A stretch of DNA of 64,000 nt. It comes from an uncultured Acidobacteriota bacterium. GTDB lineage: Bacteria > Acidobacteriota > Thermoanaerobaculia > Multivoradales > JAHEKO01. The position numbers and the translations under genes were made by a program. The stretch covers positions 96,001 through 160,000 of the forward strand of contig CAVQNG010000001.1 in the NCBI GenBank assembly GCA_963713825.1, given 5' to 3'. The notes beneath the pieces are model-generated. The model made no database searches and was not told the origin of the DNA. It worked only from the letters and a program-made list of their open reading frames with translations. Position 1 is the stretch's first letter. Every line of letters begins with the position of its first letter. Of this stretch, positions 1,935 through 46,454 are shown piece by piece.

Positions 1935-2098
1935 GTCTTCCGTTGGCTGTCGCCGACTCTCGACTTCGCCAATTCGATCGACAATCGGCTCCTACCACTC
2001 ATCTACTGATCGCGATCCGCTGTGGCAAACAATACCAGGTTCGAACTGCCCGCTTCGGTCCTGAAGTCTGCTAGGTTCTCCAACGGAGGGATGGAACG

Positions 2099-9834: not shown

Positions 9835-9865
9835 CCAAGGCAGGCGGAGAGGAGCAAAAACCGGT

Positions 9866-26832: not shown

Positions 26833-28323
26833 TCAGGGCACGGTGGCGGTCCAGGCAGACGTGCCGCCCGACTCGAACCCGTCGCTGAACATGCTCGTGC
26901 CGACCAGGATGCCGACCTGGAATCCTGTCGCCGTCTGGCTTTCGACCTCGATGGCGATCTCGGCGGCTGGATCTACGAACAGCTCTCCCACCCTCCACAT
27001 GACGCCTTCAGTGCTGGCATAGTCCGCTGGAGGATCATCTTCATCTACCACCCAGGCCGGCTCCGACCGCCCGGTGTTGACCTCGTGGATGATGACCATC
27101 CGGTCGCCAGCGCCCGAGCCCGGAATCTCGGCCTCGTAGTTGCCGACAGCTTCCCGCACCTCCACTGTGTAGTAGTGGCTGTTGCTGCCGTTGATGGGAA
27201 TCTTGGCCGTTCGATAGGTGGCTGTCGTGGCGCTACCCAGCGGATCGATGGTCACCCTGAAGAAGCCCTCGCCGGGCACCACGTACTTCTCGCTTTCCTC
27301 CAGCCAGCCGAGCCGGTCCTTGTGGTAAGAGGTCACGTGCTTGCCGAGGTTGCCGTAGACGGGGTCGTCCACGGCATAGCCGGTGGCCGAGCTCATGACG
27401 TCCCAGGGACTGTCGTAAGGGTTCGAGTCGCCATCCGAGTTGTTGGCGTGCGGCAAGCCGAAGCCGTGTCCCATCTCATGGGCGATGACGCCTTCCTGTG
27501 CGAACGCCCAGGGCGGATCCCAGGTCGTCCGCCAGCTCTTGCTGACGCCGTCCAGGGTGGCATAGCGGCCACCGCCCCAGGCACAGCAGTCGAGTCGGTC
27601 GTTGAACATGAGATTGATGCCCTCGAAGCCCCCACTGCCGCCCAGCGAGAAGTCGATGAACGGGTCTGCCGCGGCAGTGCAGTCGTTGAAGAGCTGGCTC
27701 AGGTTGGCGCCGGTGCCGCTTCCCGGGGTCGGAACATAGAAAGTGTGCGTGTTGGGTAGGTTCTTCCAGTTCACCGCCGTACTGCCGACGATATCGATGG
27801 CGTCGTAGGAGACTTCCCTCCAGTAGTGGTCGAGGCGTCCCGGCGCATTGGCATACATGCCCTGGAAGTAGCTCAGGTTTTCGGGCTCCGCCCCCTTGTC
27901 CGAGAACTTGCAGGCCAGAGTCACCCATGGCTTGGATCCCAGAACCGCTTCTGTGGAGCTCGACTCGAGGCCTCTTGGTGAAGGCAGAATGCGCAAATTC
28001 GTGGCGCGACGTCGGCCAGATCGAGGATTGCCGTCCTCGACAGTGACCTCTACAAACCGACGGTTGATGGCCATGACTCCTCCGGCCTCGGTCAGAGTGG
28101 TGCCGTCGATCACGACTTCGGAGACTTGGCCGCTCGCATCCGCAAGGAAGAACTTGAGGTGCGCAGGACCATGAATATCTGGCCCAGGATCGCCCCAGAC
28201 AACGTCGAGCCTGCCGGTCAGTGTCGCGGCCGAGAGTGGCACGGACACAACAGTAGCCAGCACGACGAAGCAGACCAGAAACGCCGCGTCGAAGGCTGTC
28301 GAAGAACGAGAGACTCTGGACAT
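26833..28323 (-). CDS. M6/M11-like zinc metalloprotease with GFESG tail
   Basis: YWREVSY; HEMGHGFGLPH; WDVMS; HKDRLGWL; ends MFSDGFESGGTSAWTATVP; GGAGG RBS before 28323. Confidence 0.85.
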   Translation of the reverse strand: MSRVSRSSTAFDAAFLVCFVVLATVVSVPLSAATLTGRLDVVWGDPGPDIHGPAHLKFFLADASGQVSEVVIDGTTLTEAGGVMAINRRFVEVTVEDGNPRSGRRRATNLRILPSPRGLESSSTEAVLGSKPWVTLACKFSDKGAEPENLSYFQGMYANAPGRLDHYWREVSYDAIDIVGSTAVNWKNLPNTHTFYVPTPGSGTGANLSQLFNDCTAAADPFIDFSLGGSGGFEGINLMFNDRLDCCAWGGGRYATLDGVSKSWRTTWDPPWAFAQEGVIAHEMGHGFGLPHANNSDGDSNPYDSPWDVMSSATGYAVDDPVYGNLGKHVTSYHKDRLGWLEESEKYVVPGEGFFRVTIDPLGSATTATYRTAKIPINGSNSHYYTVEVREAVGNYEAEIPGSGAGDRMVIIHEVNTGRSEPAWVVDEDDPPADYASTEGVMWRVGELFVDPAAEIAIEVESQTATGFQVGILVGTSMFSDGFESGGTSAWTATVP

Positions 28324-28422
28324 AGGTACCTCCCTGTGGCTTCCTGCTGGAGATTGAGTTGGCCTCTCCAGTCGGAGATCACTGGACCTCGATCCAGAAT
28401 AGCGAGGCAAGTGAAACGCCAC

Positions 28423-28438
28423 TGTGACAGGCTTCACT
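28423..28438. promoter_or_regulatory. Second CRP/FNR-like box TGTGA-N6-TCACT
   Basis: One mismatch to consensus; a minus-strand TATTCT at 28396-28401 places it near -41.5 for the M6-like gene. Confidence 0.5.
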
Positions 28439-32109: not shown

Positions 32110-34239
32110 GTGAGAACTGAAATCACTACCTTCGTGCTCTTGTCGTGTTGCTCATTGATTCTGCAGACCACTCCTTCGAGGGCGGAGGAGGGCGAAGCGC
32201 CAAAGGAGAGCTCGGTGTCCTTTGTCGGACCCGACTTCAAAGATGTGATCAGCCTCCGAACCGCCGGTTCTCCCAGGGTCTCTCCGGATGGAACTGCGGT
32301 TCTGTACACAGTCAGGGAGGCAGATTGGGAAGGCAATCGATTCGACACGGAAATCTGGCTTGCCAGGGAGGGTGAGGAGCCGTTCCCACTGACGCGTACC
32401 AAGGACAACAGCAGCTCGGACGCGCGGTGGTCTCCCGACGGCAAGAAGGTGGCATTTCTCGCCGACAGAGGCGACGGCTCACAGATCTGGCTGATCTCAC
32501 CATGGGGAGGGGAGGCCCGGGCGCTGACAGCGGTCGAGGACGGAGTCGCGGGGTTCGAGTGGTCCCCGCACGGGACCCGATTGGCTGTTGCGGTCACCGA
32601 TCCACAAGACTCCGACCGCAAGAAGCTGGAAGAAGCTCTTGGCAGTTTCTCGTTGGAGGACCAGGATTTCCAGAACACGCACTTGTGGCTGCTGGACGTG
32701 GAGGGTGCGCTTGCCACTGCGGCCGGTGCCGAGCTCCCCGATGAAGAGGACGCGAGCGACGAGGTGGCCGCAGGAGAAGAACAGGAGGACCCCGAAGAAG
32801 ACATCCCCTCGCCATTTTCGCGGCTGACCGGTGGCAGCGAGTTCACGGTGGACACCTATCGGTGGTCTCCTGATGGCAATTGGATTGCGTTCGACCACAT
32901 GCCGGATCCCCGCATCGAGTCCTCCAGTCGTGCCGATATCTCGATCCTCGAGGTCGAGACGGGGGAGATTCGACCTCTGGTGACGCAGCCAGGGCCCGAT
33001 AGTGACCCATGGTGGTCACCTGACGGTGAGTGGGTTGTATTTTCTACCGGTGACGGTGATCCTGCGTACTATCTGAATACGGAGGTCGCCAAGGTACCTG
33101 CGGCCGGGGGCGATATCGATGTACTGACGGAGGCTTTCGATGAGAATGCGAGAGCCGTGGCCTGGCTGGACGACGGTATCCGTTTTCTCGCTCTCGATAG
33201 GACGACCCGGAACCTGTACAGGCTCGATCCGGGTACTGGAGCTGTCGAGAAGGTGAGCATCGAAGGCGCCCCACTCATCCTGTGGTCGGTGGACTTTTCG
33301 AAGAACGGACAGACGATGGCTTTTCAGGCCGAAGGCGTGGACACCCTCGATGAGGTGTACCGTGTCGAGGCCGGCAGCACCAGAGCGCTGCGGGTCAGCA
33401 GCACCACCGAGCAGACGAACGGCTGGTCGGTCGGCAACCGTGATGTGATCGAGTGGGAGAGCCAGGACGGAGCCATGGTCGAAGGCGTCTTGCTGACACC
33501 CGACGACTTCGATTCGGGCGTCGAGCACCCTCTACTGGTCATCATTCATGGGGGCCCTGCGTGGCTCTCGTTCCCGGCCCTCGCCTACACCTACGTTTAC
33601 CCTGTCCAGCAGTGGCTCGAAAAGGGAGCGGTGATCCTGATGCCCAACTATCGCGGTTCGGCGGGCTACGGTGAGACCTTTCGTTCGCTGAACGTTCGCA
33701 ATCTGGGTGTCGGGGACGCATGGGACGTGTTGTCCGGAGTCGATCACCTTGTGGCCCAGGGATTCGTGGATACCGATCGCATGGCTGCGATGGGTTGGAG
33801 CCAGGGGGGATACATCTCGGCTTTCCTGACCACCTCCAGCGACCGCTTTGCGGCGATCTCGGTCGGGGCCGGTATCTCGAACTGGATGACCTACTACGTC
33901 AACACCGACATCCACCCCTTCACCCGCCATTACCTCGAAAGCACGCCCTGGAGCGACCCCGAGATCTACGCCAAGACCTCGCCCATGACGTATATCAACT
34001 CCGCCTCGACACCGACCCTGATCCAACACGGTGAGCTCGACCGCCGTGTGCCCACGCCCAACGCCTACGAGCTCTATCAGGGGCTCCAGGATGTCGGCGT
34101 GCCGGTGGACCTGGTGATCTACAAGGGCTTCGGACACGGCATCCGCAAGCCCAAAGAGCTGCTCGCGGCCGTGTGGCACAACTGGCAGTTCTTCGCCAGA
34201 TGGATCTGGGACGAGGACGTGGTCATCCCAACGGAGTAG
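32110..34239 (+). CDS. S9 family (prolyl oligopeptidase / acylaminoacyl) peptidase
   Basis: PD40-type WSPDG repeats; IHGGP; NYRGSAGYG; GWSQGG; HGELDRRVP; GHG. Confidence 0.93.
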   Translation: MRTEITTFVLLSCCSLILQTTPSRAEEGEAPKESSVSFVGPDFKDVISLRTAGSPRVSPDGTAVLYTVREADWEGNRFDTEIWLAREGEEPFPLTRTKDNSSSDARWSPDGKKVAFLADRGDGSQIWLISPWGGEARALTAVEDGVAGFEWSPHGTRLAVAVTDPQDSDRKKLEEALGSFSLEDQDFQNTHLWLLDVEGALATAAGAELPDEEDASDEVAAGEEQEDPEEDIPSPFSRLTGGSEFTVDTYRWSPDGNWIAFDHMPDPRIESSSRADISILEVETGEIRPLVTQPGPDSDPWWSPDGEWVVFSTGDGDPAYYLNTEVAKVPAAGGDIDVLTEAFDENARAVAWLDDGIRFLALDRTTRNLYRLDPGTGAVEKVSIEGAPLILWSVDFSKNGQTMAFQAEGVDTLDEVYRVEAGSTRALRVSSTTEQTNGWSVGNRDVIEWESQDGAMVEGVLLTPDDFDSGVEHPLLVIIHGGPAWLSFPALAYTYVYPVQQWLEKGAVILMPNYRGSAGYGETFRSLNVRNLGVGDAWDVLSGVDHLVAQGFVDTDRMAAMGWSQGGYISAFLTTSSDRFAAISVGAGISNWMTYYVNTDIHPFTRHYLESTPWSDPEIYAKTSPMTYINSASTPTLIQHGELDRRVPTPNAYELYQGLQDVGVPVDLVIYKGFGHGIRKPKELLAAVWHNWQFFARWIWDEDVVIPTE

Positions 34240-34367
34240 GTCTTCGAACGGCGCCCTACATCGCTTCCAGGCGGTCTCCTCGAGTCGATGTGAGCCCTTG
34301 CTTGATCAGCTTCTCGTCGTCGTGTTCGCTAGTGGGTACCTGGACCTGGGTCCCTCGTGGCACGGCA

Positions 34368-35096
34368 TCAGACCAAGCTCCGGATGACAAGTGCGGCGTA
34401 ACTGTGAGTTCCCTCGATCAGGTGGGCGCTGAACCGCTGCGGTCCGCCATGGTCAGGGGGCGCATCCACGACACGCAGAGTCGGGTCCAACGCGAATTCG
34501 AAGGCGTCGAGGCCATAGGGTAATCCCTCCCCGATGGATTTCAACGCCGCTTCCTTCAGGCTCCAGAATTGGAGGAAGGTCCGCCGGCTCGCCAGGCCGC
34601 CTGGTCCTTCAACGACCTTGGCCTCGGCCACCGAAAAGAACTGCTGAGCGAGCTCTGTAGCCTCCAGGTTTCTCGATCGATCTTCGATGTCGACACCGAC
34701 CCCATGCGTCGACGACCATGCCCCGAGAAGACCGAAGCGGCAAGAGGAAAAACTAAACCAACATCTCGGCAAGTCGGACAGGTGCGGACGGCCGTTTTCT
34801 GTCTCGTCGAAAGCGATCTGCGACAGGGGCTGTGACGATTCGAGCGCACGAGCGCCGCAGAAACGGCGAAACGCCCGGCGTTGTTGGAACCGGGCCTTGT
34901 CACCTTGTGTGACGAAGCGATCGGCCCTGTGCGACTCGGAATCTGACAGGACTGATGCGCAACGCCTCGTTACCTCTGGATCGCGCGACACCGGCGCATA
35001 CAACACGTGAGCGGCGTGACGCGCCGGCGCCGGTGTCAGATCGCGAGAACAAGCGGCGAAATAGTCCTTGATCGGATCGCTACCGTTTCTGGTCAT
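34368..35096 (-). CDS. Sfp-type 4'-phosphopantetheinyl transferase
   Basis: GRP.L, FSFS, VGVDIE, FWSLKEAALKSIGEGL. Confidence 0.9.
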   Translation of the reverse strand: MTRNGSDPIKDYFAACSRDLTPAPARHAAHVLYAPVSRDPEVTRRCASVLSDSESHRADRFVTQGDKARFQQRRAFRRFCGARALESSQPLSQIAFDETENGRPHLSDLPRCWFSFSSCRFGLLGAWSSTHGVGVDIEDRSRNLEATELAQQFFSVAEAKVVEGPGGLASRRTFLQFWSLKEAALKSIGEGLPYGLDAFEFALDPTLRVVDAPPDHGGPQRFSAHLIEGTHSYAALVIRSLV

Positions 35097-35145
35097 CTGA
35101 ATCGAAGAGCCTTTGGACTGGCTGAGAGACTAGGGGAGGCGAGAG

Positions 35146-38100
35146 TCAATCCTCTCCCACCGGCTCCGCGGGGCTGCCTTCGTATGTGGCAGTGGACAGG
35201 TGCATCTCCTTGAGGACCATGCTCAACGGTAAGAGCGTTGTCTCAGGCTCGATGACCGCACCGCCCATTACCGTGGCGCCGAAGCTGATGGTGCTGCCGT
35301 CCTGGATTTCGGTCAGCTTCACTTTCAGCATCATGTTCTCGAAGGTGTGAAACTGCAGCAAACCGTTGACCACGCAATCGTCGCCAAATCTCACCGCGTT
35401 CCAATCGTAGGCCTGCAGAGGCGAGGCAAGGATGGTCCGTTTGCCGATCTGACACCCCATCCATCGCAGAACAATATTCGAGAGTGTTGTCCCGGTGAGA
35501 ATCCGCAAGGGTCTTATACACCAGGCGAAGAAGCAATCCTGGGTGAAAAAGTAGGTGTAGTGCCGCCAGGACCAGAACGGTGTCGAGTGCGCAGAGCCCC
35601 ATTCACTGCCGACAAGGACCTTCTTGATCACGGCGCAGAACGCAATCAGGATGACCTCCGCGAGAATCAAAGCAATGAACGCGCTGAGGATCAGGGGCCC
35701 GCCCAACCGCAGCAGGCTGGTGTACAGAATCACATAGACGAGTATGTCGGCGATGCGCAGAATCCCGATGCTGAGAACATCATTCAGGAAGACCCGCGCC
35801 GCGAAGAGGGACAGACTAGGCAGTTTCTGGGCTCTGTTCTCCGCCTCGAAGTCCGCGCTCGCAAACCTGACAGGCGGGTTCCCCGCCACCGTGATCGGCT
35901 CGCCGAGCCGCGATCGCATCTGGCGCCGGAACTGTATGTCATTGCCCAGGGTAGAGGTGCCCAGTAGGAAGTTGGACGGGAATTGCCCGTACTCCGCGAC
36001 GCAGTTGTTACCGCTGAAGAAATTCTCGGGCATGTCGAGCTGGCGGAGCTTGATGTGCTCGGCACCATAGTCGAGCATGTTCGTGAAACAACCATTGGAC
36101 CAGAACACCTGCGAGTCGGCGCTGGCAAGCTCCGGGACGAGGTTGAACATGACGTCGCACTCCGAGGCGCCCAACCGCGGGAAGCGCATGCCAGCGAGTG
36201 CCCGCAGGTATTGCCCAGTGATGGTCCAGGTCCACTGTCTCTGGATCTGGTTCATCTTCTTCAGTCTGTACAAGAGGAGAGAGCCCTTGAGTCCACGCGA
36301 GGAATACAGGCCGGGGGAGGCGGGCGTGCAGCGAAGAAAGAGGCAAACCAGCACTGAGATGAGAACGATGGCGACCCAGGTGGTGATGAAGGCGTAGAGG
36401 CCCATTTGCCAGACGATCTCGTGCAGCGGCGTCACTTTGAAGTATTTGCTGGCGATTTCTGTTTCTTTGACGGGGATGAAGTTGACGGCAATCCAGCTGA
36501 CCACGGCGGTGGGGACTACCATGAGCCAGAAGTCCAGGAAGACATTCATCAGAATGTTGAGCGTCTCCATGACCCAGAACGGGTGCCTGACTTCGCAAGT
36601 CTCGGCGGTGCGCTGCAGTTGGGTGCAACGGCCGCTGAAGCGCGCCGGGGCACCCTCCCACATCTCCTCCGCACCCACATCGCTGAGGATGGGAGTCAAC
36701 GGAGCGATCCAGGTGCCGCGGCCTACCGTCACGTCGTTGGCGATGGCTGCCCGCATGCCGATCTTGCAGCCGCTCTCGAGGTGAACAGGGCCGATGTGCA
36801 GCTCCTGCCCCAACCACCTCGACATGTGCAGGTAGGCTCCGGTCTGGATCGCGACATCGTCCCCGATGGAGAGTAGGTCCAGCGGCCCATTGAACTCCAC
36901 GTCGTGCGCGCACTGCAGGTTGTCACCCACGGTCGTCCCGAGTCGCCGCAACACGTATGCCATAAGGGGGGCGCTGCGGAACATTGTGCGCAGGGGGAAG
37001 AGCACCGAACGTTCCAGCCGCCCGATACACCAGGTTCTCAAGTGCATCCTGCTCCACTTGGGGTAGACACCCGGCGTCACCTTGTTCTTGTACAGGTGAC
37101 CGCCCATGAAGAGCTTGATCCCCATGACCCAGAGCAGGCTGGCGAAGGGCAGGGCAAGGGCAATCAAGTACATCAAGAAGCCGACGCCAATGAACTCCCA
37201 GGGGCCGGCGGTCATGAAGAACTCGCCGATCTCCGAGAAGGCGATGAGCCCCAGGAAGCCGATCAAGGGGGGGGAGTACAACAAGGACAGGAAGAGGACC
37301 TGCAGAGTCGTGAAATATCCCGTGGAGAGCACCCTTGCCGCAGCTTCATCGCGCTCCGTGCTGTTCCGGTCGGTCTTCACCGCAGCCACGGGGGTCTGGG
37401 AGGCCTCCTGGAGTTGCCGTGGGCGACTGGCCACCTTCCGTGCCGTGTCGCAGTCGCTGAGCAGAGCCCGGACCGGGACCGCCCATCCTGCGGTTTGCAG
37501 GCGTTGCGCCAGTCGCGCAATGACGATCGAGTGCCCGCCATGGTCAGCGAACACATCATCCCATTCCAACGAGGTCTCGAACACGGCTCTGCAAATCGTC
37601 AGTACTTCCTCACAGCCCGGTTCCAAGTCCGGATCGGTGTCGGGAGGCGGGGCTATCCCTGAATCTGTGTCGAGCGCTCCCTCTGCTTCCGGCTTGGCGT
37701 TGGTCAGTAGATGAGACAGGTTGGGTAGGCTCCCCCGGTCGATCTTCCCGGACACCGGCTTCATGACGAATTGCTCCACCAGGAAGATCCTCGTCGGGAC
37801 CGCTGGCTCCGGAAGCTGTCTGGCCAGGGTCGCTGTCACCCGGGCAGCCCACTCCGCTGGCGCAGGAGCGACCACCGAGATATCAGCCTTGGAGATCGAC
37901 GGAGCACTTACGAAGGCAACCAGCTCCTCATTCTGATAGTCCAACACAGCTGCTTCGATTTCCCCGAACTGCGTTTGGAGTATGTCCTCAACCGCTTGCG
38001 TCTCGACTCGGTGCCCGCGCACCTTGAGCTGTGAGTCGACTCGGCCGAGGAAGTGCACTTGTTGCGTGCGGATATCTATCCTGCATTTATCCCCGGTGCG

Positions 38101-39399
38101 GTAGAGGCGGCCGAACCGAGGGTGCGTGATGAATTTCTGGGCCGTTTGCTCCGGCAAGTTGCGGTAACCGCGCGCTATGTGCACTCCACCAATGCAGAGC
38201 TCGCCGACTTGCCCGTGGGGCAGTGGGCGGAGCTCGTTGACCTCGAGGATGACGTAGGTGACGTTGGCGAAGGGCGAGCCTATGGTAACGGGCTCTCCCG
38301 CTCGCAAGCTCTGGCGGCTCGTGTCGGTGCTCGCCTCGGTGGGACCGTAGGTGTTGATGATCTGTCGTCTGCCACGCGTCCACGGCTCCACGAGCGCGGT
38401 GGGGAAGGCTTCGCCCGCCGGGACGATATAGCGGCACAGCGGGTACGGCAGATCCAGCTCCGGGTCTGGTGTGAGGGTGGTCAGCAGCACTGGGGGACAA
38501 AACAGCACAGTGACCTCGGCTTCACGGAGGACGGGGATGAGGTCCGGACCGGACCGGAACTGCTCCTTGGTCAGCATGACCACGGCACAACCCGACACCC
38601 AGGCGCTGTACATCTCGGAGATGCTGCCGTCGTAACCCAGCGACGAAGTGAGCGAGGTCGCATCCATTCCAGGAATGAGATCGAAGTAGTCGGCATAGGT
38701 CAGTGCCAGGTTCACATAGCCTGCGTGTGGGCACTCGACGCCCTTGGGCATCCCGGTCGTTCCACTGGTGTAGAAGATCGTTGCCAGGCGCTGGGCGGGG
38801 TCGTCCAACCATGACGGCGGCTTTCTTCGGGGGATCCTTTCGGGCAACGCCAGCAAGTCGAGCGTCGGCAGGTCGCGGAACTTGTCTTGCCCCCGCGTGA
38901 GAATGACCACCGGCTGTGCGTCGTCGAGCATGTGGGCTATCAGGGCTTCCGGCAAGGTGGTGTCGAGGAACATCACCGCACCGCCAGCCTTGAGAATGCC
39001 GAGGTGAGAGGCGACGATTTGCCAGTTGTCCTGCGACATGGCCACGGCCACGACCTGGTCCGGACCTGTAAGGAAGGGAGAAAGGGCCGCCGCGACGCTC
39101 TCAGCTCGGACGTCGAGCTCAGCGAAGGTCAGGGACTCCCCGGTGTGGGGAATCTGCAAAGCCGTGAGATTTGGGAACTTCCTGGCGGAGCGGCTGAAGA
39201 TCTCTGTAAGCCACCGGACGCCTTTCTGATGCGGAACGTTCAGGAGATGTCGGTCGCCAAAGACATCCGTCAAGCTGTATGGGCAAACGTCCGCCCGCCC
39301 GTCCGGCACTATCTCCGCCGCCCAGAGGTATCGCCTCCAGGCCACATACGTTAGTAAAAGGAAGACCAGGAAGACGGCTGTAAAGATAATTGCTGCCAA
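35146..39399 (-). CDS. Pls/PosA-like single-module membrane NRPS (A-T-[TM/C-like]x3)
   Basis: A domain YTSGTTGMPKG, NTYGPTE, LYRTGD, QLKVRGHRVE, SGKIDR; T domain GGHS; TM pairs alternating with hexapeptide-like domains ending WEGAPA, AGNPP and YEGSPA; TTG start with GAGG RBS. Confidence 0.88.
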   Translation of the reverse strand: MAAIIFTAVFLVFLLLTYVAWRRYLWAAEIVPDGRADVCPYSLTDVFGDRHLLNVPHQKGVRWLTEIFSRSARKFPNLTALQIPHTGESLTFAELDVRAESVAAALSPFLTGPDQVVAVAMSQDNWQIVASHLGILKAGGAVMFLDTTLPEALIAHMLDDAQPVVILTRGQDKFRDLPTLDLLALPERIPRRKPPSWLDDPAQRLATIFYTSGTTGMPKGVECPHAGYVNLALTYADYFDLIPGMDATSLTSSLGYDGSISEMYSAWVSGCAVVMLTKEQFRSGPDLIPVLREAEVTVLFCPPVLLTTLTPDPELDLPYPLCRYIVPAGEAFPTALVEPWTRGRRQIINTYGPTEASTDTSRQSLRAGEPVTIGSPFANVTYVILEVNELRPLPHGQVGELCIGGVHIARGYRNLPEQTAQKFITHPRFGRLYRTGDKCRIDIRTQQVHFLGRVDSQLKVRGHRVETQAVEDILQTQFGEIEAAVLDYQNEELVAFVSAPSISKADISVVAPAPAEWAARVTATLARQLPEPAVPTRIFLVEQFVMKPVSGKIDRGSLPNLSHLLTNAKPEAEGALDTDSGIAPPPDTDPDLEPGCEEVLTICRAVFETSLEWDDVFADHGGHSIVIARLAQRLQTAGWAVPVRALLSDCDTARKVASRPRQLQEASQTPVAAVKTDRNSTERDEAAARVLSTGYFTTLQVLFLSLLYSPPLIGFLGLIAFSEIGEFFMTAGPWEFIGVGFLMYLIALALPFASLLWVMGIKLFMGGHLYKNKVTPGVYPKWSRMHLRTWCIGRLERSVLFPLRTMFRSAPLMAYVLRRLGTTVGDNLQCAHDVEFNGPLDLLSIGDDVAIQTGAYLHMSRWLGQELHIGPVHLESGCKIGMRAAIANDVTVGRGTWIAPLTPILSDVGAEEMWEGAPARFSGRCTQLQRTAETCEVRHPFWVMETLNILMNVFLDFWLMVVPTAVVSWIAVNFIPVKETEIASKYFKVTPLHEIVWQMGLYAFITTWVAIVLISVLVCLFLRCTPASPGLYSSRGLKGSLLLYRLKKMNQIQRQWTWTITGQYLRALAGMRFPRLGASECDVMFNLVPELASADSQVFWSNGCFTNMLDYGAEHIKLRQLDMPENFFSGNNCVAEYGQFPSNFLLGTSTLGNDIQFRRQMRSRLGEPITVAGNPPVRFASADFEAENRAQKLPSLSLFAARVFLNDVLSIGILRIADILVYVILYTSLLRLGGPLILSAFIALILAEVILIAFCAVIKKVLVGSEWGSAHSTPFWSWRHYTYFFTQDCFFAWCIRPLRILTGTTLSNIVLRWMGCQIGKRTILASPLQAYDWNAVRFGDDCVVNGLLQFHTFENMMLKVKLTEIQDGSTISFGATVMGGAVIEPETTLLPLSMVLKEMHLSTATYEGSPAEPVGED

Positions 39400-39493
39400 G
39401 TGCTGTCCTCACATGGCCGTGAAGCCAAGACCCTTGGTAGCCTGGCTCCAACCGCTGAATCTGCCCCTCGTTGCTTTTGGCGACGGGGTGTGG

Positions 39494-40543
39494 TCAATCA
39501 AAGTACCGCTGGAGCGTTCCGTTGCGACGAATGTCCAAGGTTATGCAATGAAATCCACCACCCAGCATCTTAGAGTGCCGCAACTTCAGGCGGATTACAT
39601 CCAGACCGTGCTTCTCCAAGAGCTTGATCAGAGCTGTCTGGTCTTCATCGACTACGACCAGTTTCGGATTGATGCTCAAGACATTCATGTCGATCCAGTT
39701 GCTACCGATGCTCTTGGCTAGATAGTCGGCATCATATCTATCGGTGTTTTCCATCGGTGGACTGTAGATGACTTCCCATTGTCGAAAGATCTCAGGCAGG
39801 GTCTCGTCGTTGATCCGCCCCGGATTGCAGAGGACCAAGCCAGGGCGCAAAGCTGCAAAGGTCGAGTCGATATGGCTGCCATAATAGACATCTTTGAAGA
39901 AGTGAACCCGAAAAGCATCGCCCAGAATTGTCTGCAGCCATTGCCCACCCAGTTCATTGCCCGTGCCGCTGACCAGATAGAGCAAATCCTGGCCGAGACG
40001 CAGGACGTTCGCTGCATCGAAAGCTGGTTCATCGTTCCGTGGTGTGGGCTTGTTCAGATCCACCTCGAACAGCGAGTCCAACAGCATGGGTTTGGGGGCG
40101 CTGAACCACTTGGCTCCCGACCTTAGATAGTCGACCATCATCGAGCGATAGCTGAACGACTCCAAGGCGCGGCTGCGGATGACATTGGGCGTCTCGATAA
40201 TCTGATCGCCGATGACCAGAATGATGTCGCGGGGACAATAGTTGTAGTACCCCTCGGACTCCCAATGGATGGTGGAAAACTTGGCCTCGTGTGGCCATGT
40301 CTCTGGGCGTCTGACGGTGATGCCCAAACCCTCCAGGACGGCAGCAAAGGTATTCAGATCCTCTTCCGTCTCCTCGATGATCCGCTCTGGGAAAGGGCCC
40401 TGCGGAATCTCTTCCAGTGGACGGCCGGGAAATTCTGCCAGTTGGGTACTTCGGTCTGCTGTAGGAAATCTCGCACGCAGCGGATTGCCGACAATCACTT
40501 CTTCCAGTGGATCCCACTCGTTGCAACTCCAAACGACTGACAT
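39494..40543 (-). CDS. L-arginine-dependent amidinotransferase (StrB1/AmtA/AGAT family)
   Basis: NEWDPLEEVIVG, CPRD, FDAAN, HIDST, GGGFHC (catalytic Asp/His/Cys); AAAGGA RBS. Confidence 0.92.
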   Translation of the reverse strand: MSVVWSCNEWDPLEEVIVGNPLRARFPTADRSTQLAEFPGRPLEEIPQGPFPERIIEETEEDLNTFAAVLEGLGITVRRPETWPHEAKFSTIHWESEGYYNYCPRDIILVIGDQIIETPNVIRSRALESFSYRSMMVDYLRSGAKWFSAPKPMLLDSLFEVDLNKPTPRNDEPAFDAANVLRLGQDLLYLVSGTGNELGGQWLQTILGDAFRVHFFKDVYYGSHIDSTFAALRPGLVLCNPGRINDETLPEIFRQWEVIYSPPMENTDRYDADYLAKSIGSNWIDMNVLSINPKLVVVDEDQTALIKLLEKHGLDVIRLKLRHSKMLGGGFHCITLDIRRNGTLQRYFD

Positions 40544-40724
40544 ATGAATCAAATCCTTTTTTGTCCGGGGCTAATGAACGCGGCTCATCCGCCGAGTCCA
40601 CGAAGTGGATCCCCACCTTTGCCCCTGATTCCCTGCAGATCCGAGACGCGCCGACACAGCCAAGGCTCCTTCTTTGCCCCGAAGGACCTTGGCTGGCCGA
40701 ACGGATTACTTTAGCCCTTGCAGC

Positions 40725-41129
40725 CTATTCGACGGGTATTGATTCCCACAATGCGCTGTTTGGACAGACAACAAGCTCTCGATTCTCTTGGTCAATTTTC
40801 GAGGCCGGAGAACCCTCGTAGTTGTCCCAGAACAAACCCCACTCCTCAAAACTAGGCGCTACCACAATAAACAACAGGTCAGTTTCACCCATATTGGTGA
40901 CGGCGACCGGGTGATAGACCCAGGCCTCCAGGTTTTCTCCACCCTTCATTCCCTTTGCAGCCTCGAGCCACTTGGCAGCACCTGCTTCCACCTGCTTCTC
41001 AGTTGCATCATCGTCCAGCTCACAGTGGAAGACCTGCGAGACTCTGACCGCATAGGCCGGAGCGGCTGCAACCATCACCACGGCAAAGAGCATCGCGGAA
41101 ACAAGCATCAATCGAATAGCTTTGTTCAT
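40725..41129 (-). CDS. Secreted hypothetical protein (134 aa)
   Basis: GAGGAG RBS; signal ending AYA; two Cys. Confidence 0.7.
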   Translation of the reverse strand: MNKAIRLMLVSAMLFAVVMVAAAPAYAVRVSQVFHCELDDDATEKQVEAGAAKWLEAAKGMKGGENLEAWVYHPVAVTNMGETDLLFIVVAPSFEEWGLFWDNYEGSPASKIDQENRELVVCPNSALWESIPVE

Positions 41130-41266
41130 AACCTAATCTCCTCTCGAGTTAGTGTTTCGAAGCAGTATTCCGCACAGCGAAGGGGCCTGCCCCCGAACAA
41201 TTGTGCAAGGTCAGTCTGAACAATAACACCTGACCTGATCCACTGAAGGACACATCTACTTCCGAC

Positions 41267-41415
41267 TTACTTCTCCAGTTCCATCTCTCCGAGCCGCCAG
41301 GTCTTGTCGTACCAGAGCTCGAGCGGACCATAGAGGCGGAAGATTGTGTTCCAGCCCTTGCCGGGAACCGTCTGAACCCAGTTGTTACCCTGGCCCTCAG
41401 GCGCTTCGGGTTGAA
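41267..41415 (-). pseudogene. C-terminal fragment of a DUF1254/DUF1214 protein
   Basis: PEAPEG..NNWVQTVPGKGWNTIFRLYGPLE.WYDKTWR with no matching upstream body. Confidence 0.7.
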
Positions 41416-41469
41416 TGAAGCCACACTGCGCTGCCGCATGAAGAAGCTCGGAATCCAACGACCCGGACG

Positions 41470-42705
41470 CTAGGTGGAGCTCGCTTCATGCTGACGGCGC
41501 AGAGGCTGGAACTTCAAATAGGTCAGGCTGCGCCACAACCATTCAGCTGGCCCGAACCTGAATCTGCCCAACCACCAGGTGCAGAACATCAGCAGTGTCA
41601 CAAAGAAAAGAACGGCATAGAAGGTGGTGGCGGCCGGCCCCAACAGGAAAAGCTGACCAAAACCCCATCCGTAGAACAGCGTGGTGAACATCACCGTGCT
41701 GAACAGATAAACCGTCAGGGCCATTCTCCCCAGGTTCTCGAAGGGCCGAAGAGCGGTTTGCCAGCCCGGCCTTTGCGCCAGTAAGACGATCCCCGCGCCA
41801 TAACCCAGCGCCAGCGCCGTCGAGCCATAGGCAAAGAGCATGTCGCCAAGAAACCGGACCCCGCTCGATGCCGTGGTCTCGGTAAAGACTGCGTAGCCAA
41901 ATTTCTGGATCAGCCACCACTCAGCGAGTGCGCTGGCTACCCCGATGCCAATACCCCAGCCAAACACTCTGCGGATCAACGGGAGATGGGGCGCGACGTC
42001 GTAGAGAATCCTGGTCCGGCCCACGAACAGGCCAAGCAGGAACATCGAGAAGATTGCAAGACTCGATTCGGGGTCGTGCAGGTTTGACCAGATCCGTGGC
42101 GGAATGGCGAAAGCATTTTCCCGGAAGACATCCATAGGGGAACCCAGGAAAGGATGATCCACCCTCAGTTCGGCCAACGGAAGCGAATCTTCCCACTGGG
42201 CATCCAGGTCATCGCTGCTTTCTGTGTGAACCAGATTACCCACCGGGAAAGCTGCGAGGAGAAGACAGGCCAGAATCAGGAGCGTACGGGGCCGGACATT
42301 GCGGAACGCCACGAGTATCAGCCCCAGCATGGCGTATTCCATCAAGATGTCGCCGTCGAAAAACAGGGCGTGCACCATCCCAAAGACGAACAGGATGGTC
42401 AGTCGTCTGAAGTAGAACCACAAAGACCCGCCCTCGTGTGACATCGCCTTGGCCAACTGCAGTGCGAAGCCCAAACCAAACAACAGGGAGAACAGGCGCC
42501 AGGATTTGGTTTCGAAGAACGCATGCATCCATGTACTGAAGGCGCGATCGAGAGTGCCAGTCCACTCGGGAGCATCAGCCCCGAAGTTGTACATATTGAC
42601 GAGCAACACCCCGAAAAGAGCAAATCCACGGACTGCGTCAACGGAACGGATGCGAGCCCCCGGATCGGTTGGGCCGACTCGTTCTGAACCTGGCATGCGA
42701 GCCAT
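41470..42705 (-). CDS. DUF418 (YeiB-like) membrane protein
   Basis: RIRSVDAVRGFALFGVLLVN; GDILMEYA; GRMALTVYL; GPAEWLWRSLTY. Confidence 0.9.
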   Translation of the reverse strand: MARMPGSERVGPTDPGARIRSVDAVRGFALFGVLLVNMYNFGADAPEWTGTLDRAFSTWMHAFFETKSWRLFSLLFGLGFALQLAKAMSHEGGSLWFYFRRLTILFVFGMVHALFFDGDILMEYAMLGLILVAFRNVRPRTLLILACLLLAAFPVGNLVHTESSDDLDAQWEDSLPLAELRVDHPFLGSPMDVFRENAFAIPPRIWSNLHDPESSLAIFSMFLLGLFVGRTRILYDVAPHLPLIRRVFGWGIGIGVASALAEWWLIQKFGYAVFTETTASSGVRFLGDMLFAYGSTALALGYGAGIVLLAQRPGWQTALRPFENLGRMALTVYLFSTVMFTTLFYGWGFGQLFLLGPAATTFYAVLFFVTLLMFCTWWLGRFRFGPAEWLWRSLTYLKFQPLRRQHEASST

Positions 42706-42784
42706 TCTCTGCTTCTATGACCGGCAGATCAATCCTGGCAGGCGGGAAGACCAACACTCCAGGTGGATCAGTTTTTGAGGCTCG

Positions 42785-43160
42785 ACCACCGGCCGGGTAG
42801 ACCGCGAATTGATCCAGAGCTCTTGAGACTCATCCGTCGGATGGCCACTACAAACCCACTTTGGGGAGCGCCGCGGATCCACGGCGAGTTGCTCAAGCTT
42901 GGGATCGAAGTCTCTGAGCGCACTGTCTCTCGCTGGATGCCGAAGCGACCGAAGCCACCGTCCCAGACCTGGCGAGCCTTTCTGGAGAACCACCTCAAGG
43001 ACTTGGTCTCGATCGATTTCTTCACCGTTGCCTCGGCGACCTTCCAGATCCTCTTCGTCTTCGTCGTCCTCACCCACGACCGGCGGCGCGTGGCAGGCCT
43101 CCAGATCACCGAAGTGCTCATCGCTCCCCGGTCGCCTTGGCAGAATCCGTACGTCGCGCG
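42785..43160 (+). mobile_element. Internally deleted IS transposase/integrase-core fragment
   Basis: GRPRI...MATTNPLWGAPRIHGELLKLGIEVSERTV, QTWRAFL.NH, IDFFTV, then a jump to APRSPWQNPY. Confidence 0.8.
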
Positions 43161-43200
43161 GCGTCAAATGGAAAACCGTACTCCTTGTTATGATGCCGCC

Positions 43201-43857
43201 ATGAAAAAACTCGTCGTGTTAGTAAGTTTGTTCGGAGCCATTAGTCTTCCTCTCGCGGCCCAGGACTCTGAGCCAACCCAGGTTCCTGAACCGACGCAGA
43301 CTCCTGATGTGATCACGGTCCCTGAGCAGACCGATGCTCCAGAACCTGCCCAAGCTCCTGGGCCCTTGAGCCCCCTGGAGAAGGCTCTCATTCAGAGTGC
43401 CTACGATGGGAAACTGGCTGAGGTCCAGGTACTGGTTGCCAAAGGCGCCTCTGTAGATTTAGCCGATAAGAAGAAACGCACGCCGCTTATTCTGGCTGCA
43501 TATAACGGTCACACATCTGTTGTCGAATTTCTCTACGGCAAGGGCGCGGATATCAACGCGAAAGACAGCGGGGGCCAAACCGCGCTGATGCACACGTGCA
43601 AACGTTCCTTTAACGAGACAGCAGCGTTCCTGCTGAAGAACGGCGCGGAGGTAAATGTCCAGAGTAGGAAAAAGGGTGTCACCGCCTTGATGATCACGGC
43701 GGTGGCGGGCAATGTGGAATTGGTGCGCATGCTGCTTGATCGCGGGGCGGATGCAAATCTCACTGATGTCTTTGGTAACACTGCCAAGATTCTGGCCGAG
43801 AAAAAGGGGAATTCGGCCGTGGTTGATTTGCTGTCTGAGCCGCCAGCAAGTGGTTGA
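43201..43857 (+). CDS. Secreted ankyrin-repeat protein
   Basis: Signal MKKLVVLVSLF..LAA; P/Q/T-rich linker; about five ankyrin repeats (TPLILAA..GH, GQTALM, GVTALM, GNTA). Confidence 0.88.
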   Translation: MKKLVVLVSLFGAISLPLAAQDSEPTQVPEPTQTPDVITVPEQTDAPEPAQAPGPLSPLEKALIQSAYDGKLAEVQVLVAKGASVDLADKKKRTPLILAAYNGHTSVVEFLYGKGADINAKDSGGQTALMHTCKRSFNETAAFLLKNGAEVNVQSRKKGVTALMITAVAGNVELVRMLLDRGADANLTDVFGNTAKILAEKKGNSAVVDLLSEPPASG

Positions 43858-44327: not shown

Positions 44328-46454
44328 ATGACCGTGCGAAACGATGCGTGCTGGCAGTCCCTCCTCTGGAAAATTTCGGGTGCCTTGTTGATCACGCTGC
44401 TTTGCAGCCCCGTCTATGCTCAGCCGGCGAATGACGACTGTGAGAGTGCCGCCGTCCTGCCAGGCTCAGCTCCATTCCCCCCCTATACAGTCCGTGTTGA
44501 CGCTACCAATGCCACACTCGACCCCGCCGATCCCCTGCTCAGCTGCAACGCCGGCGGGGATGATGACGGCAACCAAACCGTTTGGTATGTCTACACACCA
44601 GATGCCAGCGGATGGGTCGACTTCAATACCTTTGGCAGCACGACAGCTGGGGGCGGTGAACTGGACACTGCGCACGGCGCATTTGCCGGAACCTGCGATG
44701 CCCTAACTCAAGTCGCCTGCGTAGACCAGGGTCTCAATGACAGCCTGGATGTCGAAGTGGAAGCAGGGACCACCTACTACATCAAGGTTGGTCAATTTGC
44801 TGGTGGCAACGATGCCGGAACTGTCGTGATGAATGTTGAAGAGGGTGTCCCGCCGATTGAGCCGGCTAGACTGGTTATCGAATCCTCGAACAATGGCACC
44901 TCCGCCCCGGTGAGAGATATTGTTGGTGGGTCTGCACCTATTTCAATTTCCGCGGCTCAAGCGGAGAACATGATCGAAAAACTTGTCGAGATTCCGAATT
45001 ACGTGCTTGCTGACGGCGAGTCTTCGAAACCCGATGCGGGACCTGTCGGGTCACAGGTCGCAGGCAATGGTGAAGTCAGATGGAACGGTCCGGCAGATCT
45101 TCTGCAAGTTTTCGAAGGCGGAGAAAACGATGACAACGCCTTTACCTTTGGTTTTCTCATAGCTCCGCCCGACACGGTAGGCGACGTCGGTAGAGACCAT
45201 TACGTACAGATGTACAATCTGCTGACGGAGATCTTCGACAAGGAGGGCAATAGCGTTCTCGGACCGTTTCCGACCTCCACCTTCTTTACCGGAATGTCTG
45301 GAAATTGCGCAATCAGTGACGATGGAGACCCGATCGTCCTCTATGACGAGGAAACGGACCGTTGGCTGGTGTCACAGTTCCTGGCTTCCTTCCAGGATGG
45401 CCTCTGCATAGCCATTTCGACCAGCGGCGACCCGACCGGCAGTTACAACCAGTATGAGTTTGACTTCACCGGTATCGGGTTTCCCGATTATCCGAAGTTT
45501 GGCTTCGCAACCGGTGCCATCAACGTGATGGTCAACCTGTTCTCCCCCTTCCAGGGCTCTGCGCTGGGCGCGATCGACAAGTCCGAGATGTTGGCTGGAG
45601 AACCGGCAACGATGGTGCTCTTCACCGGAGGCGAAGACGCTAATTATGCATTTGGCTGGGTTCCTGGTGACAACGATGGTCCGGTTTTCGACAACACGCT
45701 GCCGACTTTCTTCACCACTCTCGGAGGTTCCGGCGATACCATCTTCGTCGCGGAAATTACGCCTGACTGGGCCACTCCGGAGAATACTGGGCTCGGCTTT
45801 GACTTTATCCCGGTTACGCCATGGGACAGCACGCTCTGTGGTGCTTCGCGCGGTGCTTGTATTGATCAGCCGGGTTCGGGTACGGAGAACATTCCCTTCC
45901 TGGAAGGTATTACCGACCGCCTGATGCACCGCGGGCAGACCCGTGATTTCGGTAGGCGCAAGAAAGCCATCCTCAGCCATACGGTGGATGTGGACGGCAC
46001 GGGCAAAGCGGGTGTGCGCTGGTATGAGCTCTGGAACCACAAGGACCGAGGCTGGACGCTGAAGAAGGAAAACACCTTCTCACCCGACGGTGACCACCGC
46101 TGGATGGGTAGTATTGCGATGACCGCCTCTGGTAGTACTTGCCTGGGATATAGCATCTCAAGTCAAACTACCTACCCGAGTATTGGCATTACCGGCCGCA
46201 AAGGCACGTCGAACCACATGAATATTTTTGAATTGGTGGCTTTCGATGGCAACGTTGCTGGGAACGTGCAGCGGTCAACGGCGAGATGGGGTGATTACAG
46301 CGCCATGTCCATCGACCCGGTAGACGACAGCTGCTGGTACACCCAGGAACATGCCAAGCCAGGTTCCTTTATTGACGAGATATTCGGCTGGGGTACCCAG
46401 GTGATGCAATTCTCAGTCAGCGGTCGCGGTCGCGGTCAAGGACGCGGACGATGA
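44328..46454 (+). CDS. Large secreted protein (ANDDC/PPC-like N-domain + beta-rich C-domain)
   Basis: Signal; PANDDC; GTTYYIKVG; PPDTVGDVG..HYVQMYN, GDPIVLYD, FPDYPK, RWGDYSAM motifs. Confidence 0.75.
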   Translation: MTVRNDACWQSLLWKISGALLITLLCSPVYAQPANDDCESAAVLPGSAPFPPYTVRVDATNATLDPADPLLSCNAGGDDDGNQTVWYVYTPDASGWVDFNTFGSTTAGGGELDTAHGAFAGTCDALTQVACVDQGLNDSLDVEVEAGTTYYIKVGQFAGGNDAGTVVMNVEEGVPPIEPARLVIESSNNGTSAPVRDIVGGSAPISISAAQAENMIEKLVEIPNYVLADGESSKPDAGPVGSQVAGNGEVRWNGPADLLQVFEGGENDDNAFTFGFLIAPPDTVGDVGRDHYVQMYNLLTEIFDKEGNSVLGPFPTSTFFTGMSGNCAISDDGDPIVLYDEETDRWLVSQFLASFQDGLCIAISTSGDPTGSYNQYEFDFTGIGFPDYPKFGFATGAINVMVNLFSPFQGSALGAIDKSEMLAGEPATMVLFTGGEDANYAFGWVPGDNDGPVFDNTLPTFFTTLGGSGDTIFVAEITPDWATPENTGLGFDFIPVTPWDSTLCGASRGACIDQPGSGTENIPFLEGITDRLMHRGQTRDFGRRKKAILSHTVDVDGTGKAGVRWYELWNHKDRGWTLKKENTFSPDGDHRWMGSIAMTASGSTCLGYSISSQTTYPSIGITGRKGTSNHMNIFELVAFDGNVAGNVQRSTARWGDYSAMSIDPVDDSCWYTQEHAKPGSFIDEIFGWGTQVMQFSVSGRGRGQGRGR

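Follow-up and report, generated by a model that had tools for sequence, protein, structure and literature searches.

The window analysed here is a 64,000-nucleotide stretch from an uncultured Acidobacteriota bacterium (GenBank:CAVQNG010000001.1, positions 96,001 to 160,000), and the system in question is a minus-strand gene cluster in which an amidinotransferase (AT) is encoded directly before a membrane-bound synthetase related to the poly(amino acid) synthetases Pls and PosA. Based on the open reading frame (ORF) listing of the window, three minus-strand ORFs were located at 39494-40552, 35146-39399 and 34368-35096, with intergenic gaps of 94 bp between the AT and the synthetase and 49 bp between the synthetase and a phosphopantetheinyl transferase, in agreement with the three co-oriented genes and the gap lengths given in an initial annotation of this DNA. 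The AT reading frame is open from a TTG at 40552 (352 amino acids); since an AAGGA ribosome-binding site precedes the ATG at 40543 (349 amino acids), the latter, which the initial annotation had taken as the end of the region, is the more likely start. As described below, the AT and the synthetase recur side by side in other bacteria, and the cluster represents a genuine, conserved and so far uncharacterised pathway.

The first gene (39494..40543, minus strand) encodes a StrB1-like AT of the L-arginine type, 349 amino acids in length. Comparison with solved structures revealed that it matched StrB1 (PDB 1bwd) over residues 6-350 with an E value of 2.4e-114 and no long gaps, followed by HsvA (E 2.4e-66), the glycine amidinotransferases (E about 1e-63) and SxtG (E 1.2e-61), with the entries 5wpi, 1jdw and 6u1r falling between E 1e-61 and 1e-66; in Pfam, only the C-terminal part matched, weakly, with PF02274 (18.3 bits, cut-off 22.8). 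Residues D109, D179, H227 and C336 were invariant in all 107 aligned homologues, and position 229, an Asp in the window, was Asp in 98 of the 107 and Asn in the remaining 9. All five residues align with active-site positions of StrB1, and would have the roles described in the StrB1 and AGAT literature, a catalytic Cys-His-Asp and two substrate-binding Asp residues. The AT and StrB1 presumably also share the short form of the fold, without the extra module of the glycine amidinotransferase. Hydropathy analysis detected neither a signal peptide nor a membrane segment in the AT.

The second gene (35146..39399, minus strand) encodes the synthetase (P0002, 1,417 amino acids), which consists of an N-terminal transmembrane (TM) helix (39331-39399), an adenylation (A) domain (about 37720-39198), a carrier (T) domain (37429-37605) and a Pls/PosA-type domain with three TM pairs and three beta-helices (35149-37332). 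In protein coordinates, AMP-binding was matched at residues 68-412 (PF00501, E 9.9e-61) and PP-binding at 599-657 (PF00550), hexapeptide-repeat matches were also returned, and no Condensation or Thioesterase match was found by Pfam at E ≤0.01. The Pls/PosA terminal-domain model TIGR02353 aligned over residues 742-1411 (model positions 37-695 of 695, E 5.9e-48), and hydropathy placed the three membrane-helix pairs at 699-766, 949-1031 and 1196-1267, and, at the N-terminus, one additional helix (1-23) that the initial annotation does not list. Residues 690-1417 were modelled with AlphaFold2 from a 32-sequence alignment; the model reached a mean predicted local distance difference test (pLDDT) score of 86.7 and a predicted template modelling (pTM) score of 0.88, and showed three repeats in which a helical hairpin is combined with two helices and a beta-helix. 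The best PDB matches of this model by Foldseek were hexapeptide-repeat acetyltransferases (E 5e-6 to 8e-4); a sequence search of the PDB with the same domain found no solved Pls-type domain, the sole match being a hexapeptide transferase (E 7e-4). BLASTP among the three repeat units gave one significant pair only (E 1e-4), so that the three-fold repeat is supported by the predicted model and not by sequence. In the third unit, a Q-x-H-x-x-E motif was invariant across 32 members of the superfamily, its His being residue 1351 of P0002 (662 of the C-terminal part). The same C-terminal arrangement is described for a model of PosA (PMC10522769, cited, like PMC12042044, PMC4668381 and PMC12423673 below, from excerpts of the text).

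The third gene (34368..35096, minus strand) encodes a 4'-phosphopantetheinyl transferase (PPTase) of the Sfp/HetI type (P0003, 242 amino acids), which scored 55.5 bits with PF01648 (cut-off 25) and matched the HetI model with E 1.4e-17, below the equivalog cut-off. The three assignments of the initial annotation were therefore borne out: 1) the AT with intact Asp/His/Cys, by the full-length StrB1 match and the residues conserved in the 107 homologues, 2) the 1,417-residue A-T synthetase with a three-fold TM/condensation-like part, by the domain matches, the three helix pairs and the modelled repeats, and 3) the Sfp-type PPTase, by its PF01648 score.

Conservation of the AT-synthetase pairing

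Two lineages of related loci and a set of controls were compared. Lineage A comprises the best 80 of 229 relatives retrieved with the AT as query, one genome per species, with AT identities of 75-88% to the window. The control set comprises 85 loci among the matches listed for other Pls-like synthetases, 78 of which had a detectable Pls-type C-terminal domain; since a single-protein query (P0207) gave only 2 useful loci, an alignment query was used for it instead. A synthetase followed the AT in 77 of the 80 lineage-A loci. The misses were L063, L074 and L087, the last on a contig of 1062 bases; L063 and L074 have a close AT homologue and no synthetase in the 4-10 kb available downstream (L074 together with sbnAB, the genes for diaminopropionate synthesis), and among the 80 loci they alone genuinely break the pairing.

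By their record labels, the lineage-A loci span at least seven phyla: Pseudomonadota (59), Acidobacteriota (9), Verrucomicrobiota (5), and Thermodesulfobacteriota, Cyanobacteriota, Nitrospirota and Gemmatimonadota (1 each), with 3 unknown; single labels may be wrong, as most of the records are metagenome bins. The A domains are 70-87% identical to that of the window. In a profile search, the window synthetase fell into a tight group, with one distant full-length relative, P0130, whose C-terminal part is 34% identical. The lineage of P0130, lineage B, was represented by 31 loci (Luminiphilus, Halieaceae, Arenicellales and Thioglobus), in 26 of which an AT (64-68% identical) lay directly upstream of the synthetase, the 5 loci lacking it all starting at a contig end. 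Lineage B also keeps the order of a small secreted protein (X134), AT and synthetase, with a convergent gene for a DUF418 membrane protein. No AT, DUF418, X134 or sbnAB was found within 10 kb in any of the 85 control loci. The AT is thus conserved beside homologous synthetases, as the reading proposed by the initial annotation supposed.

A similar picture emerged close to the window. Among 61 genomes related to that of the window, a full-length synthetase was present in 5 (G000, G003, G004, G005 and G024), and a close AT (77-100% identical) in exactly those 5, on the same contigs; one of the 61, G006, counts only as a negative. Three different gene orders were seen among the five: in G004 an opposite-strand sulfatase gene stands between the AT and the synthetase genes, and in G024 the AT is on the opposite strand, 3.4 kb past the PPTase. 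It was also noticed that in G024 two tandem DUF3604 genes (L029, 7358-11225; 639 and 638 amino acids, about 800 bits each) are located directly upstream of the AT.

The arrangement is far beyond chance. That adjacency is incidental and the two enzymes belong to unrelated pathways has a practically negligible probability, given the pairing in 77 of 80 and 26 of 31 loci against none of the 85 controls, and given that the linkage persists through three gene orders among close relatives. On the strength of this co-occurrence, we favour a functional link in which the AT and the synthetase act in one pathway.

On the synthetase tree, rows from Thermoanaerobaculia, Gammaproteobacteria, Desulfobacteraceae, Verrucomicrobiota and Alphaproteobacteria interleave, a pattern of sequence relationships indicating that the cluster has often been transferred horizontally, or else that contigs were mis-binned. 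The gene set was found in marine Halieaceae, Luminiphilus, Arenicellales and SUP05-type gammaproteobacteria, in soil Alphaproteobacteria, as well as in Acidobacteriota and Verrucomicrobiota. Carriers titled as complete chromosomes, with no label of a metagenome-assembled genome, are a Halioglobus sp. and two Arenicellales; the record Delta proteobacterium NaphS2 is another carrier. Two irregular loci were observed. In the alphaproteobacterial L099 the synthetase is in two halves (1655-3733 and 8317-10485) about 4.6 kb apart, which suggests an insertion in the gene, and one Filomicrobium bin has two AT-synthetase loci on two contigs (L067 and L106), each with sbnAB, representing either two copies or a binning artefact.

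Adenylation code, diaminopropionate genes and the likely product

The ten specificity positions of the A domain were mapped by means of the A4, A5 and A10 core motifs and are given in GrsA numbering. The window synthetase had the code DGSFVATTDK, which was exact in 56 of 68 lineage-A sequences, the rest being one or two letters off or cut, and identical in P0124 and the distant P0130. The code keeps Asp235 (the contact to the alpha-amino group), positions 2 and 3 are small, and the sole acidic pocket residue is at position 9. The same mapping reproduced the codes DSECYGGVTK and DAESIGTVxK given for other family members in the excerpts of PMC10522769. According to the excerpts of PMC12042044 and PMC10522769, all characterised polymer synthetases of the family have Glu at position 3, the "binding mode 1" for the side-chain amine. 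Position 3 of the window synthetase is Ser, and since the Glu is lacking, the substrate as judged by this code is probably something other than a plain diamino acid bound in the usual mode; the code would be compatible with a longer side chain carrying a positive charge, for example a guanidino group.

The string DGSFVATTDK was not found in the literature searched, subscription journals and supplementary files aside; Supplementary Table 2 of PMC10522769, which gives the codes of many homologues, may include the group. The nearest other Pls-like group, with the code DSECYGGVTK ("Bdello_A" of Bdellovibrionales; Patel and Gulick 2023), is 25-29% identical in the C-terminal part, and the A domain of Bdello_A is reported to have a weak preference for L-arginine over diamino acids (PMC10522769), a hint that substrates of the guanidino type may be used in this region of the family. 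The Bdello_A-type group differs from that of the window in that it keeps the Glu at position 3 and has no AT within 10 kb in the loci fetched.

Directly upstream of the AT, 51 of the 80 lineage-A loci carried sbnA-sbnB, the gene pair for L-2,3-diaminopropionate (Dap) synthesis, and 2 more had one of the genes. The SbnB proteins of L035 and L062 scored 388 and 392 bits (cut-off 326.9), and the SbnA proteins of L035, L062 and L049 scored 375-379 bits (cut-off 349.95), with three more SbnA at 323-345 bits. In 10 of the 31 lineage-B loci, a distinct sbnAB pair (about 33% identical) was located on the opposite strand beyond DUF418; its SbnB scored 329.4 bits, over the cut-off, and its SbnA-like protein 272 bits, below the cut-off yet with SbnA as the best match. 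As two unrelated arrangements of sbnAB point to Dap, it may be the precursor, and the operon position of sbnAB before the AT makes Dap the likely acceptor of the amidino group, as far as gene order can tell. In the initial annotation, Dap had appeared merely among several acceptors to be screened. No literature was found that pairs an amidinotransferase with SbnA or SbnB, and amidino-Dap was encountered in the literature in synthetic-peptide and analytical uses only.

These findings bear first on a plain diamino-acid polymer, either poly-Dap or a poly-ornithine fed by the ornithine from the AT reaction; the AT would guanidinylate free amino groups of the polymer later or just supply ornithine. 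The reaction of the AT family does release ornithine. In addition, sbnAB beside a Pls-type synthetase is the layout of the poly-Dap cluster of Streptomyces albulus PD-1 (excerpts of PMC4668381). However, the Glu at position 3 described for all characterised polymerisers of Dap, diaminobutyrate (Dab), Orn and Lys (excerpts of PMC12042044) is missing here, and the 85 control loci are all without an AT. A dedicated AT would be superfluous for ornithine, a primary metabolite, and the AT has no signal peptide or membrane segment, whereas the polymer presumably exits the cell. A plain polymer is therefore very unlikely in our estimation; its poly-ornithine form, raised in the initial annotation as an alternative, was abandoned, because the code is unlike ornithine-type codes and most relatives carry Dap genes.

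The reading we prefer, with about as much confidence as doubt, has the AT supply the synthetase with a guanidino amino acid, probably amidino-Dap, for activation, condensation and export. The AT would move the amidino group from L-arginine to a small amine, most probably L-2,3-diaminopropionate, yielding amidino-Dap and ornithine. The A domain would then activate the cationic guanidino amino acid and load it onto the carrier domain primed by the PPTase. The C-terminal domain, as modelled a membrane-embedded pseudo-trimer of hexapeptide-repeat acyltransferase folds, would form the amide bonds and export the resulting guanidino-bearing oligomer or polymer.

Several observations weigh against this reading, and the most direct ones concern the supply of Dap. 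The window genome, 96% complete, contained no SbnA or SbnB over cut-off; its best scores were 261.2 bits for the SbnA model (TIGR03945, cut-off 349.95), from a protein of the cystathionine-beta-synthase type, and 165.9 bits for the SbnB model (TIGR03944, cut-off 326.9), from one of the alanine-dehydrogenase/cyclodeaminase type. Neither protein was found over cut-off in G003, G004, G005 and G024, nor in five further genomes with sbnAB-less loci, one of which is a closed chromosome. Among the lineage-A loci having at least 2.5 kb upstream of the AT, sbnAB was absent in 19, about a quarter, and on the synthetase tree (FastTree; 37 rows with sbnAB and 13 without, 5 short-flank rows set aside) its presence switches at least 7 times. 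Loci with and without sbnAB could be told apart neither by the A-domain code nor by any residue of the AT. As no sequence difference tracks sbnAB, either Dap comes from another source or it is not an obligatory precursor. A second difficulty is chemical: the guanidino group is a poor nucleophile, so that a homopolymer of N-beta-amidino-Dap would need alpha-peptide bonds, and we know of no Pls-type enzyme that makes such bonds. Thirdly, the synthetase scored only 163.7 bits with TIGR02353, under the curated cut-off of 423.1. With a C-terminal domain diverged to this extent, polymerisation is an extrapolation, and of the Pls architecture claimed by the initial annotation the A-T-membrane layout stood, whereas the below-threshold score and the lack of the Glu at position 3 set the enzyme apart.

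The variable occurrence of sbnAB would be accounted for, with no change in the A-domain code, if the AT made an amine acceptor instead, such as an amidinated diamine or diamino acid, to which the synthetase would add one or a few residues of another cationic amino acid, such as arginine, to give a small guanidino amide or a capped oligomer. HsvA, the second-best solved relative of the AT (E 2.4e-66), reportedly amidinates spermidine before an amino acid is ligated to it, and the single Asp at code position 9 would, we presume, also suit arginine. The weak activation of L-Arg by the tested member of the nearest Pls-like group (PMC10522769) is in line with this. However, no AT residue separates loci with and without sbnAB, so that the sequences lend no support to a switch of acceptor between hosts, and neither a ligase nor a second carrier is present in the cluster. 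In characterised Pls-type clusters, moreover, the neighbouring enzymes supply the monomer. We regard this alternative as unlikely, although it is the strongest of those considered, and the synthesis of amidino-Dap as the monomer of the synthetase remains the reading preferred here.

Partner genes and the surroundings of the cluster

Upstream of the AT, two further genes on the minus strand belong to the unit, which thus exceeds three genes. The first (40725..41129) encodes X134 (P0274), a small secreted protein of 134 amino acids with a Cys pair; its gene has a GAGG ribosome-binding site, and its N-terminus is a hydrophobic signal that ends in AYA. It was matched to no family of Pfam or NCBIfam. 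C36 was invariant and C122 nearly so in 18 homologues, and AlphaFold2 (pLDDT 88.6) predicted a ferredoxin-like dimeric alpha+beta-barrel fold, for which Foldseek returned methylmuconolactone isomerase, olivetolic acid cyclase and other dimeric ferredoxin-like proteins (E about 2e-4); the ESM Atlas gave unnamed clusters, with weak leads to DUF1330, ABM and NIPSNAP (0.81-0.82), which have the same fold as the Foldseek matches. X134 was found in 18 of 80 lineage-A, 22 of 31 lineage-B and none of the 85 control loci.

The second (41470..42705) encodes a polytopic DUF418/YeiB membrane protein (P0275, 411 amino acids), which scored 126.2 bits with PF04235 (cut-off 23.6) and matched the YeiB model with E 1.3e-28. 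A D23-x-x-R26 motif in its first TM helix was invariant in 8 of 8 homologues, and a DUF418 gene stood near the synthetase in 12 of 80 lineage-A, 25 of 31 lineage-B and none of the 85 control loci. In 40 further lineage-A loci its place is taken by a TraX-like membrane protein with an invariant D-x-x-K motif; the two occurred together in none. In a 2025 study, DUF418/YeiB proteins, and TraX as a marginal case, were assigned to the transmembrane acyltransferase (TmAT) superfamily, whose members carry acyl groups from cytosolic acyl-CoA to extracytosolic acceptors, mostly carbohydrates, and for which D-x-x-R is the signature, with a D-x-x-K variant described for TraX (excerpts of PMC12423673). 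By its sequence, the DUF418 protein of the window is thus a member of this superfamily and a predicted acyltransferase. Comparison of DUF418 and TraX-like proteins with hhalign, using our own shallow profiles, detected no similarity (probability 0.14%), so that their common superfamily is taken from the excerpts of PMC12423673. A TmAT-type protein of either kind was present within 10 kb in 52 of the 80 lineage-A loci.

The PPTase is an optional member of the unit: about 33 of the 80 lineage-A loci, but only 1 of the 31 lineage-B loci, had one after the synthetase. Of the gene set proposed by the initial annotation, all three members are therefore genuine, but the set was drawn too narrowly in leaving out X134 and DUF418, and the PPTase in it is dispensable. 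Peptidase genes of the S41 family were found near the cluster in 45 of the 80 lineage-A loci, and genes for DUF4344 putative metallopeptidases in 9 of the 80.

The nature of these partners raises the question of an envelope modification similar to those by DltABCD and MprF, in which the A-T part would load a guanidino amino acid and the membrane domain would transfer it to an acceptor in the periplasm or at the outer surface, with the TmAT, X134 and the periplasmic peptidases as parts of the same modifying set. The partners are indeed extracytoplasmic, X134 by its signal peptide and the TmAT by acceptors that lie outside the membrane (PMC12423673), and the S41 peptidase genes would find a place in such a set. 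The identity across phyla in lineage A, of both AT and A domain, is unusually high for secondary metabolism, and the N-terminal membrane helix is a clade-specific anchor that 64 of 67 lineage-A rows have and that all 5 other Pls-like proteins compared lack. On the other hand, all characterised proteins that share this C-terminal domain produce free homopolymers, as stated in the excerpts of PMC10522769, no genes for the synthesis of an acceptor were conserved in the loci, and the patchy, horizontally transferred distribution suits an accessory trait as well as an antibiotic. Both the transfer to an envelope acceptor and the wider modifying set thus appear quite unlikely to us. For the exported amidino-Dap product that we prefer, the DUF418 transmembrane acyltransferase and X134 would instead handle the product further outside the cell, for example by N-acylation. 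The fullest version of this proposal, a widespread and horizontally exchanged poly(guanidino amino acid) pathway in which a new branch of Pls-type synthetases makes an arginine-like polycation of amidino-Dap units, with bonds not known from any characterised member, exports it and has it acylated outside by the TmAT, is offered tentatively, as it is more probably wrong than right in one or another of its parts.

Between the DUF418 gene and X134, a remnant of 50 codons was noticed at 41270-41419 (minus strand). It corresponds to the last 50 of the 520 residues of a DUF1254/DUF1214 protein (60% identity, E 2e-14), which in G024 sits just upstream of the synthetase (L031, 491-2053), and is a relic of a rearrangement at the locus. 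On the other side, a plus-strand gene at 32110-34239, converging on the PPTase gene, encodes a protein of the S9 prolyl-oligopeptidase family with PD40 propeller repeats. It was considered as a polymer-degrading partner and rejected; since it has no counterpart beside the cluster in 118 related loci, it is probably incidental. Farther away, the plus-strand gene at 42763-43857 has N-terminal transposase-type HTH_32 and HTH_21 motifs fused to ankyrin repeats, an unusual fusion, and the products of 44328-46454 (plus strand, 708 amino acids) and 26833-28437 (minus strand, 534 amino acids) matched no Pfam family at E ≤0.001. No riboswitch or leader was matched by Rfam in 33500-43500 at E ≤1, and a promoter and terminator scan of 34000-43300 gave 1 and 5 sites, respectively, fewer than in shuffled sequences, and was uninformative. 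For 34368-42705, the sequencing data sets listed were DNA sets from sediment metagenomes, with shares of 0.22-0.38, and no RNA set was among them.

Significance and comparison with known systems

Epsilon-poly-lysine is a commercial preservative, and to our knowledge the polycationic poly(amino acid)s described from bacteria are few and all bear amino groups. If the proposed product is correct, a natural relative with guanidino groups would establish a new biopolymer class, which could be expected to resemble oligo-arginine in penetrating cells, acting strongly on membranes and resisting common proteases, and the AT would be the first amidinotransferase known to feed a Pls-type synthetase. The pathway is compact, with three to five genes, and since the gene set is common, the product may matter ecologically. 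A survey of the literature, subscription journals and supplementary files aside, found no amidinotransferase coupled to a Pls-type synthetase, in line with the initial annotation, which knew of no such characterised cluster.

The best solved relative of the AT, StrB1 (1BWD), is the L-arginine:inosamine-phosphate amidinotransferase of Streptomyces griseus, with Cys, His and Asp at the same positions. The two differ in context: no aminocyclitol genes surround the AT, its partner is a synthetase resembling the nonribosomal peptide synthetases, and its acceptor is probably an amino acid, unlike that of StrB1. In the hsvABC pathway of phevamine, the product of the amidinotransferase HsvA is reportedly joined to amino acids by amide bonds. 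That pathway uses ATP-grasp ligases and a polyamine acceptor, whereas the AT of the window is paired with a carrier-dependent membrane synthetase. As for the SbnA/SbnB route, known from staphyloferrin B and the poly-Dap cluster, relatives of the window carry the pair at scores over or near the equivalog cut-offs, whereas the window genome has none.

With Pls (epsilon-poly-L-lysine; Streptomyces albulus), PosA (delta-poly-L-ornithine; Acinetobacter baumannii) and the synthetases of poly-Dap, poly-Dab and poly-beta-lysine, the window synthetase shares 1) a single A-T module that has neither a condensation nor a thioesterase domain, 2) a C-terminal domain of about 730 amino acids with three helix pairs and three beta-helix units, and 3) the invariant residues of the superfamily, including the Q-x-H-x-x-E of the third unit. 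Its C-terminal domain is just 21-29% identical to those of other Pls-like proteins, it has no Glu at specificity position 3, and it has an additional membrane helix at the N-terminus; by sequence comparison, it is a divergent subfamily of the Pls/PosA-like enzymes. The genetic context is equally distinct from that of the Pls-like controls, with the AT as an obligatory neighbour and DUF418/TraX and X134 as frequent ones, none of them seen in the 85 control loci. The features that set the system apart from the Pls/PosA family are the obligatory AT, the N-terminal membrane helix, the TmAT and X134 partners, and a specificity code lacking the Glu at position 3.

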